A stretch of 64,000 nucleotides of DNA from IMG/VR virus record IMGVR_UViG_3300044991_001466. One strand, 5' to 3'. The stretch is from a virus (taxonomy: Duplodnaviria > Caudoviricetes). Within the stretch, counting starts at the first letter, position 1. Every line of letters starts with the position of its first letter. A program made the position numbers and the translations under genes. Below, piece by piece: positions 34,134 through 50,537 of the stretch. The notes beneath the pieces were generated by a model. It was given only the letters and a program-made list of their open reading frames with translations. It was not told where the DNA came from and made no database searches.

Positions 34134-36977
34134 GTGAAAAAAATTAAACATTCGATAAGTAGAAAATCAATCCCCCAAGTGAAATTAGTTTCATTAACGG
34201 GTAAGACATGGTTTGATGCGGACGGAAGTTTATTTGAATGGTCAGGAACTACGGGTAATTTACCTACGGGATTAACCCCAACAACCGGTTATGTTGTTTA
34301 TAACGTAACTGGCGGAACTGTAACTGGTGGTTATTATTATAAATGGGGAATACCTACAGGTAACACATGGAATAAAATCACAGGAACAACATCCTATATT
34401 AATTCACAAATATATGATACTCACCAAGTACCATTATTTTTAGAATCATCGGTTGATGAATATGGTCCAATGGTTGATTTTGATGGTGATGTTGAACAAA
34501 ATACAATTACCGCCAATTTTGATTATGATATTAGTTGTACGGATTATACAATAACAATCAATAACACCACAAATTTTGGTAAGTTAAAACAACTTAGAAA
34601 TGCAACATACACGGTACATTTTGACGACGGTTTAAAATTACCAATGAATGCAAATCAATCACTTATTAGGAATTTTTCAACAAATGGAGTTCAAAATATT
34701 AAAATCACATTAGATTCACCATTCTTTACTTCACATATTTCTAAAAGTGTTATTGTAGATTGTACTCAATTTGTTAATGCGTCACCAACGCCAACAAATA
34801 CGGTAACACCGACTATAACCGCTACACCAACCGTAACCCCAAGTGTTACACCAACAAGAAACGCAACACCAACTGTTACTAGAACAAGTACCGTAACACC
34901 AACTATTACCAAAACAAATACATTAACACCTACGGTTACACCAACTATAACTGTAACAAATACTGTTACACCAACAGGAACTCCAACAAGATCGGTTGAT
35001 AGTACTCCAACGCCAACAAGTACTGTTACTCCAACATCACTTACACCAACACCTACAACTACAGTAACACCAACTGTTACCCCAACAATAACTGTATCAC
35101 CAACAAATACAGTTACACCAACTGTTACATCCACAACTACTGTTACTCCAACTGTAACCTCAACAGTAACTCCATCAACACCAGACCCAACACCGGCGGA
35201 AACATCTTCACCAACCCCAACTGCCACGGTTACTCCAACAACTACCGTTACACCAACTGTGACATCAACTACAACTGTTACTCCAACCGTAACACTAACA
35301 CCAACAGTAACACCTACGGTGAATTGTTCATTCGGTATCGGAGTTGTGGTATTAGCACCTTCACCTACACCAACAACTACGGTAACACCTACAACAACTG
35401 TTACGTCAACTGTAACACCAACTGTTACGTCAACAATCACATTAACACCTACAGTGACTTCAACAATAACTGCAACACCAACAGTTACAACCACAGTTAC
35501 CCCAACAACAACCGTAACACTAACACCGACAGTTACACCTACGGTTGATTGTTCTTTTGGAATTGGTGTTGTGGTATTAGCGCCTTCACCGACGCCAACT
35601 ACCACGGTTACAAGTACTGTAACTCCAACAATAACAATCACACCAACTGTAACATCAACAACTACTGTTACTCCAACCGTAACACTAACACCGACAGTTA
35701 CACCTACGGTTGATTGTTCATTTGGTATTGGCGTTGTTGTGTTAGCACCGTCACCGACGCCAACAACTACAGTTACAAGTACAGTTACACCGACAGTCAC
35801 AGTAACACCAACTTTAACATCGACAGTTACATTAACACCAACAGTGACCCCAACAAATACGGTCACATCAACTATAACTTTAACACCTACAGTTACTACA
35901 ACACCAACAGTGACATCTACGGTAACACCTACGGTGGATTGTTCATTTGGTATTGGGGTGGTAGTATTGGCTCCTTCACCTACGCCAACAACTACGGTTA
36001 CACCAACTGTAACTTTAACTCCAACTGTAACCTCTACAGTTACACCAACTATAACTCTAACACCAACCGTAACACCTACTAAGGATTGTTTCTTTGATGC
36101 AACATTTACTGAAACATTTACACCACCAAATGAATCTCCAACTTGTGCCTGTTATTCATATACAAATACAACTGATACTAATGGTGAAGTTTATTATACT
36201 TCTTGTTTAGGTAATTCTCCAACAACATCATATGTTAATGCCGGTTTAACCATTACATTTTGTGCGGTATATGGACAATCTGTAACTGCAACATCAGGAA
36301 CAATCGGTGGATTATGTGGTGGTTTTGTTCAATCTTGTCAGGATGATAGTTGGTGTAGCTCTTGTGGTTCTAATATCCCAAGTTCAACTCCAACTCCAAC
36401 AATAACCGCAACACCAACTCTAACACCAAAACCTGCGTCAGTTCCAAGTATTAGAACTAATTCATGTCCTATAGTAACATACAATTCGTTACCTCAAAGT
36501 GGTAATGGTACAATAACTATTGGAAGTAATACCATAACTACAACATATAGTGGTGTTAATACATTATTAACCAATCAAGCTGGCAATTTATTGGTACAAC
36601 CTGTAAATTGCTTACCGGGGTCATATCCAACCGGATATAATTTATGGTTAGGAACATATGCTGGAGCCTTCACATATACCATGACATTTTCACAATCAGT
36701 TAATAACATTTTATTAATGGGTTACGGTAGTGGACAACGACAAGCACCTTCATTATATGAACGTTTTATTATTACAACAAATTCAGGTAATCCAAGCTTA
36801 GTAATATGTAATGGGTGTGGTGGTTATACACAAGGAAATAATTTATACGTGAATTACCCCGGAGATCAAGGTGGTAATACACAAACATTAATAACAGCGA
36901 GTTCATCATTTACTAGTTTAACAATAACAGGAAATGGTGGTCTATTAGGAACTTTGTTCTTACTAGGATTACAATGA
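34134..36977 (+). CDS. Mucin-like Thr/Pro/Val-rich tail fibre/appendage protein
   Basis: 947 aa, GTG start after TATTTATA. About 430 aa of TPTVT repeats with four V(D/N)CSFGIGVVVLAPSP motifs. Confidence 0.65.
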   Translation: MKKIKHSISRKSIPQVKLVSLTGKTWFDADGSLFEWSGTTGNLPTGLTPTTGYVVYNVTGGTVTGGYYYKWGIPTGNTWNKITGTTSYINSQIYDTHQVPLFLESSVDEYGPMVDFDGDVEQNTITANFDYDISCTDYTITINNTTNFGKLKQLRNATYTVHFDDGLKLPMNANQSLIRNFSTNGVQNIKITLDSPFFTSHISKSVIVDCTQFVNASPTPTNTVTPTITATPTVTPSVTPTRNATPTVTRTSTVTPTITKTNTLTPTVTPTITVTNTVTPTGTPTRSVDSTPTPTSTVTPTSLTPTPTTTVTPTVTPTITVSPTNTVTPTVTSTTTVTPTVTSTVTPSTPDPTPAETSSPTPTATVTPTTTVTPTVTSTTTVTPTVTLTPTVTPTVNCSFGIGVVVLAPSPTPTTTVTPTTTVTSTVTPTVTSTITLTPTVTSTITATPTVTTTVTPTTTVTLTPTVTPTVDCSFGIGVVVLAPSPTPTTTVTSTVTPTITITPTVTSTTTVTPTVTLTPTVTPTVDCSFGIGVVVLAPSPTPTTTVTSTVTPTVTVTPTLTSTVTLTPTVTPTNTVTSTITLTPTVTTTPTVTSTVTPTVDCSFGIGVVVLAPSPTPTTTVTPTVTLTPTVTSTVTPTITLTPTVTPTKDCFFDATFTETFTPPNESPTCACYSYTNTTDTNGEVYYTSCLGNSPTTSYVNAGLTITFCAVYGQSVTATSGTIGGLCGGFVQSCQDDSWCSSCGSNIPSSTPTPTITATPTLTPKPASVPSIRTNSCPIVTYNSLPQSGNGTITIGSNTITTTYSGVNTLLTNQAGNLLVQPVNCLPGSYPTGYNLWLGTYAGAFTYTMTFSQSVNNILLMGYGSGQRQAPSLYERFIITTNSGNPSLVICNGCGGYTQGNNLYVNYPGDQGGNTQTLITASSSFTSLTITGNGGLLGTLFLLGLQ
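34782..36083 (+). repeat. Coding low-complexity TPTVT/TPTTT repeat array
   Basis: Degenerate ACACCAAC/GTTAC repeats encoding Thr-Pro-Thr-Val. Confidence 0.95.
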
Positions 36978-46577: not shown

Positions 46578-47186
46578 ATGATTACAGATGTAAAATTTAA
46601 AAACAAACCAAAAATTCTTGGTTTGGATATAAGTACAAAAACCATAGGTTTTGCTTTATTTGATATAAGTGGTTCTAAATTATTGGAATTAACTCACTTC
46701 TCCCCAAAAATTAAGCCTCAACCAGAAGATAAGTTAGAAGAACTTATGATGAAAGCAAATGCATTTCAGAAAGTTTTAGATAACTATAAAGACATGGGTA
46801 TAACTCGTGTTATCATTGAAGAACCATTATTGAATTCAAATAACGTTTATACCGTAGGTACATTACTAAGATATAACACATTAATTTGTAAACTTATTTA
46901 CGATAATTTTCAAATCGTACCAACATTCATATCAACATATAACGCAAGAAAATTTGCATTTCCTGATTTGGTTGGACCAAATGATAAAGGACGTAATGTA
47001 TTATTTGGAGGTTATCCAAAAGATATCGACAAGAAAAAAGTAATATGGGAACATGTTAATGATGTTTGTCCTGATATTAATTGGTTAAAAGGAAAGAATG
47101 ATGTTTTGAAGAAAGAAAATTTTGATATGGCGGATGCGGTAACTTGTGTTATTGGTTATTTCAACATGATTAAACAAGAAAAATAA
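46578..47186 (+). CDS. ruvC: RuvC-like Holliday junction resolvase
   Basis: ILGLDISTKTIGFAL, VIIEEPL and FDMADAV catalytic pattern. Confidence 0.85.
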   Translation: MITDVKFKNKPKILGLDISTKTIGFALFDISGSKLLELTHFSPKIKPQPEDKLEELMMKANAFQKVLDNYKDMGITRVIIEEPLLNSNNVYTVGTLLRYNTLICKLIYDNFQIVPTFISTYNARKFAFPDLVGPNDKGRNVLFGGYPKDIDKKKVIWEHVNDVCPDINWLKGKNDVLKKENFDMADAVTCVIGYFNMIKQEK

Positions 47187-47239
47187 TATCCGGCAACTCA
47201 TATTTCATTATAAGAGTTGTTTGTGTTATACTTATTAAT

Positions 47240-47314
47240 AGGACGGGACAGAGCGTAAAAAACTTTGTTTGGTTGGTAGGGAGTCGATGTGGTGGTCGGC
47301 TCCCATTTTTTTTT
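47240..47314 (+). ncRNA. Candidate small non-coding RNA
   Basis: 35 of 64 bases are G/C over 47241-47304. Two hairpins with G-U pairs, an extended -10 (TGtTATACT, 47224-47232) upstream and a T9 tail downstream. Confidence 0.45.
47279..47314 (+). terminator. Intrinsic terminator
   Basis: GGGAGTCGAT-GTGGTG-GTCGGCTCCC followed by A and T9. Confidence 0.85.
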
Positions 47315-47343
47315 ATCATATTTTTTTCTTATAATTCTACTGT

Positions 47344-48285
47344 ATGAACAATCAAGAAGTAGATTATACCGCAATTTTTGAGATACTAGAAGATATTTTT
47401 GGTGACTATAAAAATCATAGTGACTATAAATCTCAGGTTAGTTTTGATTGTCCGGTTTGCTCATATGATATTAAAAGTTTAGACCACGGAGATGGAAAGG
47501 GTAATTTAGAAATCAATTATAGGTATGGGGTTTATAAATGTTGGGTGTGTGCTGAATCACATGAAACACATGGGTCTATCTATAAACTAATTAAAAAATA
47601 TGGTAATCCTAAACAACTCAAAAAATATCTTTTATTAAAACCCGAAGAACAACACGACGGAGTAAAAAAAGTATATAATCAAATTAAGTTGCCGTCAGAA
47701 TTTATTCCATTCAAAGATGCAAGTTTTGGAATGAAATTAACTCCCGGTTATAAACAAGCTTACAACTACATTAAAAGAAGAAACATTACTGATTTAATGT
47801 TACAGATTTATAATATTGGATTTTGTGCTACGGGAATATATGAAAATAGAATTATTATTCCATCTTATGATGAGAACAATAGAATAAATTATTTCATTGC
47901 TCGTTCATACTTGAACAATACAAAAATGAAATATAAAAATCCACAGGCACAAAAAGAGATTATAATATTCAACGAGAAATTAATTGATTGGAATGAAACT
48001 GTTTATATAGTTGAAGGCGCATTCGACAGTATATTCATTCCAAATGCAATTCCAATGTTAGGTAAATTTATGAGTGAACATTTATTCAATAAACTTTACA
48101 ATAACGCAAAAAAAATTATAATAGTGTTAGACCCTGATGCATATAACGACCAAGAGAGATTGTATCATAGATTGAATTGTGGTAAGTTAATGGGTAAGGT
48201 GTGGTCAATAAAATTAGAGGGGGATAAAGATATTGCCGATTTAAAAGGTGATTTAAGTGAGTATAAAATAAAAAAAATAGAATAA
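47344..48285 (+). CDS. dnaG: DNA primase (DnaG/gp61-like)
   Basis: Zn finger CPVC...CWVC; TOPRIM motifs VEGAFD, LDPDA and KDIAD. Confidence 0.88.
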   Translation: MNNQEVDYTAIFEILEDIFGDYKNHSDYKSQVSFDCPVCSYDIKSLDHGDGKGNLEINYRYGVYKCWVCAESHETHGSIYKLIKKYGNPKQLKKYLLLKPEEQHDGVKKVYNQIKLPSEFIPFKDASFGMKLTPGYKQAYNYIKRRNITDLMLQIYNIGFCATGIYENRIIIPSYDENNRINYFIARSYLNNTKMKYKNPQAQKEIIIFNEKLIDWNETVYIVEGAFDSIFIPNAIPMLGKFMSEHLFNKLYNNAKKIIIVLDPDAYNDQERLYHRLNCGKLMGKVWSIKLEGDKDIADLKGDLSEYKIKKIE

Positions 48286-50472: not shown

Positions 50473-50537
50473 TTTCCGGCAACTCACTTTTTTTTACGGA
50501 ATGTTTTCTCTATATTTTAAATAATAAACTAATAATT

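Follow-up and report, generated by a model that had tools for sequence, protein, structure and literature searches.

A predicted small RNA family with two covarying hairpins between ruvC and primase in freshwater jumbo phages

The DNA analysed here, referred to throughout as the window, is a stretch of 64,000 nucleotides (nt) from a virus (Duplodnaviria; Caudoviricetes; IMG/VR record IMGVR_UViG_3300044991_001466). In this large freshwater phage a spacer of 157 nt separates ruvC from the primase gene and holds a structured plus-strand RNA element that is certainly under strong selection. An earlier reading of the letters alone, made without database searches (the sequence-only reading), had interpreted part of this spacer as a phage small RNA not described before, equipped with a promoter-like box and a terminator of its own. 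Covariation, a conserved box and the lack of any Rfam or transfer RNA (tRNA) match support that proposal. We somewhat favour the interpretation that the element is a stand-alone small RNA of a new family, which also ends the upstream transcription unit and whose invariant elements bind a partner.

Fold, covariation and strand of the element

The predicted RNA comprises a first hairpin (P1), a short linker and a second hairpin (P2) that runs into a U-tract (Table 1). P1 and P2 make up the minimum-energy fold of positions 47238-47318, P1 having one unpaired G on each side, and this fold exceeds chance expectation (-28.5 kcal/mol vs -16.6 +/- 2.75 for shuffled sequences; z -4.3). At the base of P1, 47242-47249 pairs with 47267-47274 around a single G-G mismatch, which is G-A in other members. 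The sequence-only reading had described the first hairpin as GACAGAG (47247-47253) paired with CTTTGTT (47263-47269), with two G-U pairs; that pairing is present, and the fold extends it to 47242-47274. The linker it had named, GGTTGGTA at 47271-47278, is also there, and in the fold model its first bases probably pair with 47242-47244. In P2, whose two G-U pairs and following run of nine Ts lie where they had been placed, the arms 47279-47288 and 47295-47304 enclose a 6-nt loop, share six G-C pairs and are followed by an A and T9. P2 and the U-tract have the features of an intrinsic (Rho-independent) terminator and are predicted to act as one; in a terminator scan P2 was the sole strong plus-strand terminator-like hairpin in the 64-kilobase (kb) window. 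The element is rich in G+C (35 of 65 positions, or 54%, at 47241-47305, vs ~30% window-wide), close to the ~55% first estimated for it within an AT-rich genome. A covariance model of the element scores 85.4 bits here (E 4e-20), the sole real match in the window, and the element is also single-copy in a complete relative that served for genome-wide tests (G001, loci L354-L370; rated 100% complete, 335,630 base pairs (bp)). Another match in G001, at 36166-36239 on the minus strand, is weak, runs over the end of a gene and was rejected as chance.

Several lines of evidence indicate that both stems are maintained by selection. We used two sets of homologues, an alignment of 40 distinct sequences (A1) and a second set of 46 distinct metagenome sequences whose alignment was fitted to the model. 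RNAalifold recovered the same two helices from A1 (n=40), in which standard pairs occupy 97.7% of stem cells vs 74.8% after shuffling, the covariation score is 0.604 vs 0.160 (0/500 shuffles) and further pair types number 41 vs 32.7 (0/500). Sliding the pairing partners out of register reduced the score of A1 to 0.05-0.19. The metagenome set gave 97.5% paired cells vs 71% shuffled and a covariation score of 0.650 vs 0.178, and slid-partner scores over both sets ranged from 0.05 to 0.24. In P2 all ten pairs (10/10) covary and the 5' arm alternates between G-rich and C-rich forms, and many independent double changes are therefore needed. The upper four pairs of P1 covary as well, with 20-23 sequences changed on both sides at two of these pairs, and the pairs of the P1 base show only G-U to A-U exchanges. 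Eight divergent homologues, each folded singly, adopt the same shape (z -4.4 to -6.3). The covariation that the sequence-only reading had proposed to look for among related ruvC-primase regions is thus found in both stems.

The stems also identify the strand. Across the aligned homologues they contain 194 G-U cells and 0 A-C cells, so only the plus strand can form them, and the U-tract lies on the 3' side only. The fold belongs to a plus-strand RNA and not to a DNA cruciform, as had been argued from the G-U pairs of the single sequence. It had also been noted that the segment encodes no credible protein. Homologues range in length from 67 to 80 nt, with indels whose lengths are not divisible by 3, and no reading frame survives the arm swaps; the element is therefore non-coding. 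An AUG within the P2 stem opens a 15-codon frame beginning Met-Trp-Trp (47287-47334) in the window and its closest relatives only; since other relatives are without this AUG, the frame is probably meaningless.

Table 1. Features of the ruvC-primase region in window coordinates; identity is column identity computed over 48 distinct intergenic sequences.
Feature	Positions	Strand	Identity	Remarks
Predicted small RNA	47240..47314	+		~73-75 nt; predicted start; predicted end inside the U-tract
P1 hairpin	47242..47274	+		G-U-rich invariant base, variable upper stem, A-rich loop
P1 base, 5' strand			0.97	GACGGGAC
P1 base, 3' strand, and GG			0.95	GUUURGUU, opposite GACGGGAC, then GG
Upper P1			0.59	
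Linker	47275..47278	+		invariant GG and 0-3 variable nt (alignment A1)
P2 hairpin	47279..47304	+		predicted intrinsic-terminator hairpin, 10 bp; loop 47289-47294
P2 arms			0.64-0.66	
P2 loop			1.00	GUGGUG
U-tract (T9)	47306..47314	+	0.99	terminator tail
Promoter-like box	47224..47235	+	0.94	TG-extended TATACT (47224-47232) overlapping TACTTAT (47229-47235)
12-nt box	47189..47200	+	0.80	TCCGGCAACTCA; 5' of the RNA's promoter-like box
Primase -10-like box	47330..47335	+	0.93	TATAAT; after a conserved T-rich stretch (47315-47328)
RuvC-like Holliday-junction resolvase gene	46578..47186	+		upstream neighbour; open reading frame (ORF) of 202 amino acids (aa); phrog_159, E 3.7e-8
DnaG/gp61-type DNA primase gene	47344..48285	+		downstream neighbour; phrog_47, E 2e-38

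Conserved parts and distribution among phages

Conservation is not confined to the terminator hairpin. The most conserved parts are the P1 base, the linker and the P2 loop, and UGGUG is invariant throughout A1. Of 28 strong terminators in G001, this element is the only one (1/28) with a GUGGUG loop. Because these parts are the most conserved and the loop is unique in G001, the element is more than a terminator, with conservation beyond what termination needs and no coding potential. Judging from conservation, the invariant parts look like recognition surfaces, one of them a helix rich in wobble pairs that contains a purine-purine mismatch and the other an exposed loop of six nt. The strong terminators of G001 are rare, about one per 12 kb, and mostly carry GAAA (GNRA) or UUCU loops, the GAAA-loop terminators often having CCCTC...GGGGG stems.

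The element matches no RNA family that we could compare it with. A search of 101 nt alone against Rfam 15 (4,227 models) gave best scores of 8.8-13.6 bits vs thresholds of 39.5-70, so that no family comes near threshold, and a 2.5-kb search returned nothing at E 10 on the element and only generic terminator-like noise far below threshold. It had been judged not tRNA-like, and ARAGORN indeed finds no tRNA or transfer-messenger RNA gene in the 64-kb window. By these comparisons the RNA belongs to no described family and is previously undescribed. A conserved RGUUGGUA (47270-47278 and relatives) stands in this non-cloverleaf RNA and is identical to what we take to be the commonest tRNA D-loop sequence. 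In the literature we found no small regulatory RNA for Flavobacterium phages, freshwater phages of uncultured hosts not having been searched separately. A catalogue built from IMG/VR contains 8,495 candidate structured RNAs (csRNAs), 1,241 of them with terminators (PMC10690425), and draws on the same data source and the same kind of evidence, covariation in phage intergenic regions. The text of that paper mentions neither primase nor jumbo phages, and the catalogue may list this element anonymously.

We determined the distribution of the element from at least 120 relatives of the primase in IMG/VR, on contigs of up to 335 kb that represent uncultured jumbo phages. It is carried by 79 IMG/VR phage contigs; 74 loci have a primase that is 60-98% identical, and in 73 of these the element stands 5' of the primase gene. 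The sole exception (L072:2894-2954, primase 60% identical) has a degenerate form in which P1 and its conserved base are gone and the terminator loop UUGGUG remains; judging by this locus, the loop motif could be the most ancient portion of the RNA or the one under the tightest constraint. Six further viral contigs also hold the element (L094, L096, L098, L099, L186 and L224). It is absent from L075-L080, where the primase is ~50% identical, and from the ruvC relatives L100-L111, which have a plain terminator (L100, L101) or nothing (L102, L104, L105) in its place. In metagenomes more than 54 contigs carry it, with strong matches at 54 of the first 80 loci. No isolated phage showed DNA similarity to the region, and the nearest primases from isolates are 31% identical and come from Flavobacterium phages. 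Loose pattern scans of viral and genome collections were dominated by chance matches, the real ones being only L128, L186 and L224; in the genome collection 0 of 159 loci were positive among the matches listed and scored. Judged by this distribution, the RNA family is confined to one clade of jumbo phages from aquatic, mostly freshwater, habitats.

The sequence-only reading had allowed for a primase-linked element as well, and this idea is weakened by the gene order of relatives. The element is INDEPENDENCE from its neighbours: a 274-aa gene sits between ruvC and the element in L024-L029 and L047, and in L186 an aminotransferase gene (phrog_2736; L186:12218-13441) separates the element from the primase gene. 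In related loci the element always lies 3' of a co-directional gene. The 12-nt box and the promoter-like box of Table 1 accompany the RNA and not ruvC. The match of the primase to PF08275 is under the family cut-off.

Transcription signals around the element

The extended -10 that had been read at 47224-47232 (TGTTATACT) is present and overlaps TACTTAT, a one-mismatch copy of TATTTAT, the commonest upstream heptamer of the phage. The whole box is TATACTTAT in the window and mostly TATATTTAT in relatives. In 46 of the 48 sequences it ends 5-8 nt 5' of the first conserved base of the RNA, and the spacers around it drift (identity 0.57). In G001, 8-mers of the TATTTAT class are the most enriched 5' of genes, at 22-24 fold and in 49 of 146 upstream regions. 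The box before the RNA belongs to this enriched class and thus appears to be the promoter-type box that is common in the phage, here not followed by an ATG; it is a candidate promoter.

The motif itself, purine-purine-TATTTAT(A/T), lies 4-17 nt before the ATG in about one-third of genes with an intergenic spacer; in the window it occurs, for example, at 1710, 12561, 24513, 40172 and 45009. It is without a -35 partner in G001, and a single-element motif lacking a -35 is reminiscent of T4 late promoters. We dropped a "late" label for the box, as it precedes a baseplate-wedge gene but an SSB gene too.

The primase gene appears to have a box of its own, as first proposed: the TATAAT at 47330 is conserved (Table 1), and its distance of 8 nt from the ATG at 47344 fits the usual box-ATG distance of this phage.

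Further upstream stands the 12-nt box TCCGGCAACTCA, which has a second, identical copy at 50475-50486, ~3.3 kb downstream and before another promoter-like site; the window contains no further intergenic copy. Each copy comes just past a stop codon, with a TATAYT box 24-28 nt further on, and between the two lies a block comprising primase, exonuclease, SbcD and a 179-aa ORF. The only two intergenic copies in G001 occupy equivalent places, and many relatives retain the second copy in front of differing genes. That the same 12-mer precedes two promoter-like sites suggests that the two are under common control, with the 12-mer probably serving as a shared operator or activator site. It is missing in the RNA-bearing loci L031, L037, L064, L065, L073 and L186. 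In some relatives the ruvC frame extends into the first copy, ending SGN*.

Possible modes of action and relation to known systems

If the element is a stand-alone small RNA, transcription would start at about 47240-47242, 5-8 nt past the phage-type promoter box, and would end at P2 and U9. The same terminator would close the ruvC unit and insulate it from the primase block, which would be restarted from its own box. The RNA would most likely act in trans: the P1 base with its mismatch, the GG linker and the GUGGUG loop would be the surfaces recognised by a protein or by a short partner of the loop-pairing type, and the variable, covarying stems would only hold these invariant parts in place.

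A number of observations weigh against this interpretation. A scan with the sigma-70 consensus calls no promoter for the RNA in the window, because the -35 part is poor there. At phage translation starts, sequences complementary to the loop, the linker and the 5' block show no enrichment, and none gives an extended match of note. A promoter followed by a short RNA, a strong terminator and an operon is, by analogy, equally what an antitermination gate would show, and a possibly related element of another phage lineage comes directly after a stop codon and has no promoter-like box. Among metatranscriptomes, 12 freshwater or marine RNA runs hold small parts of the 1.7-kb stretch, and contigs from 4 runs cover parts of ruvC (some 100% identical) and of primase and none cover 47195-47760; contigs from size-selected libraries cannot show a 73-nt RNA, so this point, listed with the others, is uninformative either way. 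Two specific partners were tried and rejected. Pairing of the loop with the primase start is not conserved among relatives, and the published ligand motifs of the host RRM protein RbpB are unrelated.

A distinctly less probable alternative is that the boxed promoter regulates the primase-exonuclease-SbcD block in cis, the element being a leader or gate at which P2 is read through in the presence of a factor. A phage factor would then bind the P1 base, the P2 loop or the DNA box, after the model of lambda PR'-6S RNA-tR' with Q, or of N with nut. In the lambda late gate, which is controlled by Q antitermination, a promoter is followed by a terminator within ~70-200 nt directly before the operon, and HK022 put RNA has two hairpins in ~70 nt, the put hairpins not being terminators. 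The ruvC-primase locus resembles the former in its promoter-terminator-operon layout, with a short RNA and a strong terminator directly before the block, and the latter in having a two-hairpin RNA of ~70 nt. A protein gene is driven directly by a second promoter-like site, which has the same GGCAACT box in front of it as the RNA has, and P1 often has a GAAA or A-rich loop, like boxB-type hairpins. The comparison is one of layout, and here, unlike in these systems, the downstream gene is replaceable and is preceded by a separate conserved box, spaced from the ATG as is usual in this phage: in L186 it is the aminotransferase gene, and not primase, that follows the RNA. Moreover, P2 ranks with the strongest terminators in the genome and faces no competing pairing, and the two loops, A-rich in P1 and G/U in P2, are not complementary to each other.

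Somewhat less probable again is that the element belongs to the 3' untranslated region (UTR) of the ruvC (or inserted-gene) mRNA, as a terminator and stabiliser without a promoter of its own and perhaps as the source of a 3'-UTR-derived small RNA. Its constant position behind a co-directional gene would agree with this, as would the element of the other lineage, which starts 6-10 nt past the stop codon and is without a promoter-like box; the 3'-UTR explanation gained some weight from that comparison. What speaks against it in the jumbo phages is the conserved box, a member of the motif class found upstream of this phage's genes, which lies 5-8 nt ahead of the RNA's first conserved base; conservation sets in there, while the preceding spacer drifts. 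A plain terminator, in addition, needs neither an invariant loop nor the P1 base.

The other element occurs in a different, smaller phage type, as a conserved, undescribed non-coding element in the order terminase, small ORF, element, portal (L396:7388-7461(-), L434:600-672(-) and L479-L534 at ~1330-1440). Its covarying hairpin carries a GUUC(UG) loop and is followed by a conserved U/G-rich tract, single-stranded and ending in UUGGUUGG, and then by a terminator; only a subset of these terminators has the GUGGUG loop, and no Rfam family matches the element. A GGCAAT-like "box" before it was rejected as coding sequence. This portal-linked element may be related to the jumbo-phage RNA, through homology or convergence.

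As to what a trans-acting RNA might bind, we regard it as improbable, though of interest, that the UGGUG and the preceding UUGG units recognise the 3' end of tRNA (A/C-ACCA). UGGUG is exactly complementary to the tRNA 3' end CACCA; this is a complementarity of only 4-5 nt, found after several partners had been tried. The UGGN bulge of the T-box antiterminator and the GGU of RNase P L15 pair with the tRNA 3' NCCA end, and the invariant, exposed UGGU(G) of this RNA, exactly complementary to ACCA or CACCA, is like them. Unlike a T-box, this RNA has no Stem I, specifier or antiterminator. A T-box assignment also finds no Rfam match for this ~73-nt RNA of two hairpins, which has its UGGU in the terminator loop. 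If the idea were true, a phage small RNA would bind or sense uncharged tRNA acceptor ends, and it might couple the infection programme to the translational state of the host or interfere with defences that act on acceptor ends. The D-loop-like RGUUGGUA would then fit a tRNA-related origin or mimicry.

We consider it very unlikely that the element is a ligand-sensing riboswitch or classical attenuator controlling primase by a choice between terminator and antiterminator, even though a conserved, structured leader does end in a terminator upstream of a gene. The P2 arms change fully while the upstream conserved sequence stays fixed, and for that reason no conserved antiterminator pairing is possible. 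When the nascent RNA was folded without the 3' arm of P2, the 5' arm was essentially unpaired in 27 of 40 sequences and no competing pairing appeared; in ten such folds that were inspected P1 was intact in all, and arm pairing, where there was any, was local. Rfam returned no riboswitch match, and the downstream gene varies. On these grounds a classical riboswitch or attenuator was excluded. Least probable of all is a role at the DNA level, as replication origin, primase-loading hairpin or cruciform: replication genes adjoin the element and an AT-rich stretch lies downstream, but the complementary strand cannot form the stems, the U-tract is one-sided, the element is separable from primase and the cumulative GC skew of G001 follows gene orientation with no turning point at the locus, for which an origin there was rejected.

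The stand-alone RNA that we favour would have counterparts in size among known phage RNAs. Lambda oop RNA, P22 sar RNA and P4 CI RNA are phage regulatory RNAs of ~70 nt with their own promoter and intrinsic terminator; they either lie antisense to a neighbouring gene or are processed from one, and they work through long base pairing. The RNA described here is like them in its size, its phage origin, its compact hairpins ending in a terminator and its place in a replication or regulation region. It differs in being co-directional, in overlapping no gene and in having almost no single-stranded sequence, and it has no sequence or Rfam model in common with them. The vrRNAs of VIPR, which consist of 9-16 tandem YNNGG units with a hypervariable NN and an invariant tail (bioRxiv 10.64898/2026.04.26.720920), are likewise phage-encoded, ~100 nt long and G-rich with a structured 3' part. 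Here, unlike in vrRNAs, the only variable parts are the paired stems, and with at most two UUGG units and no hypervariable unpaired dinucleotides the RNA was rejected as a member of that group.

Small regulatory RNAs of virulent and jumbo phages are, to our knowledge, barely known. Against this background the element is an unusually clean candidate: its start region and end are defined, covariation proves its two helices, and its three short invariant elements hint at a specific partner. More than 100 environmental phage genomes carry it, and a covariance model is ready for annotating such phages; being small and easily synthesised, the RNA suits pull-down and structure work. Were it to act as a gate, it would represent a new antitermination signal controlling phage replication genes. 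More broadly, it allows one to test whether large phages employ RNAs that bind proteins or pair through their loops to organise the boundaries of their transcription units.
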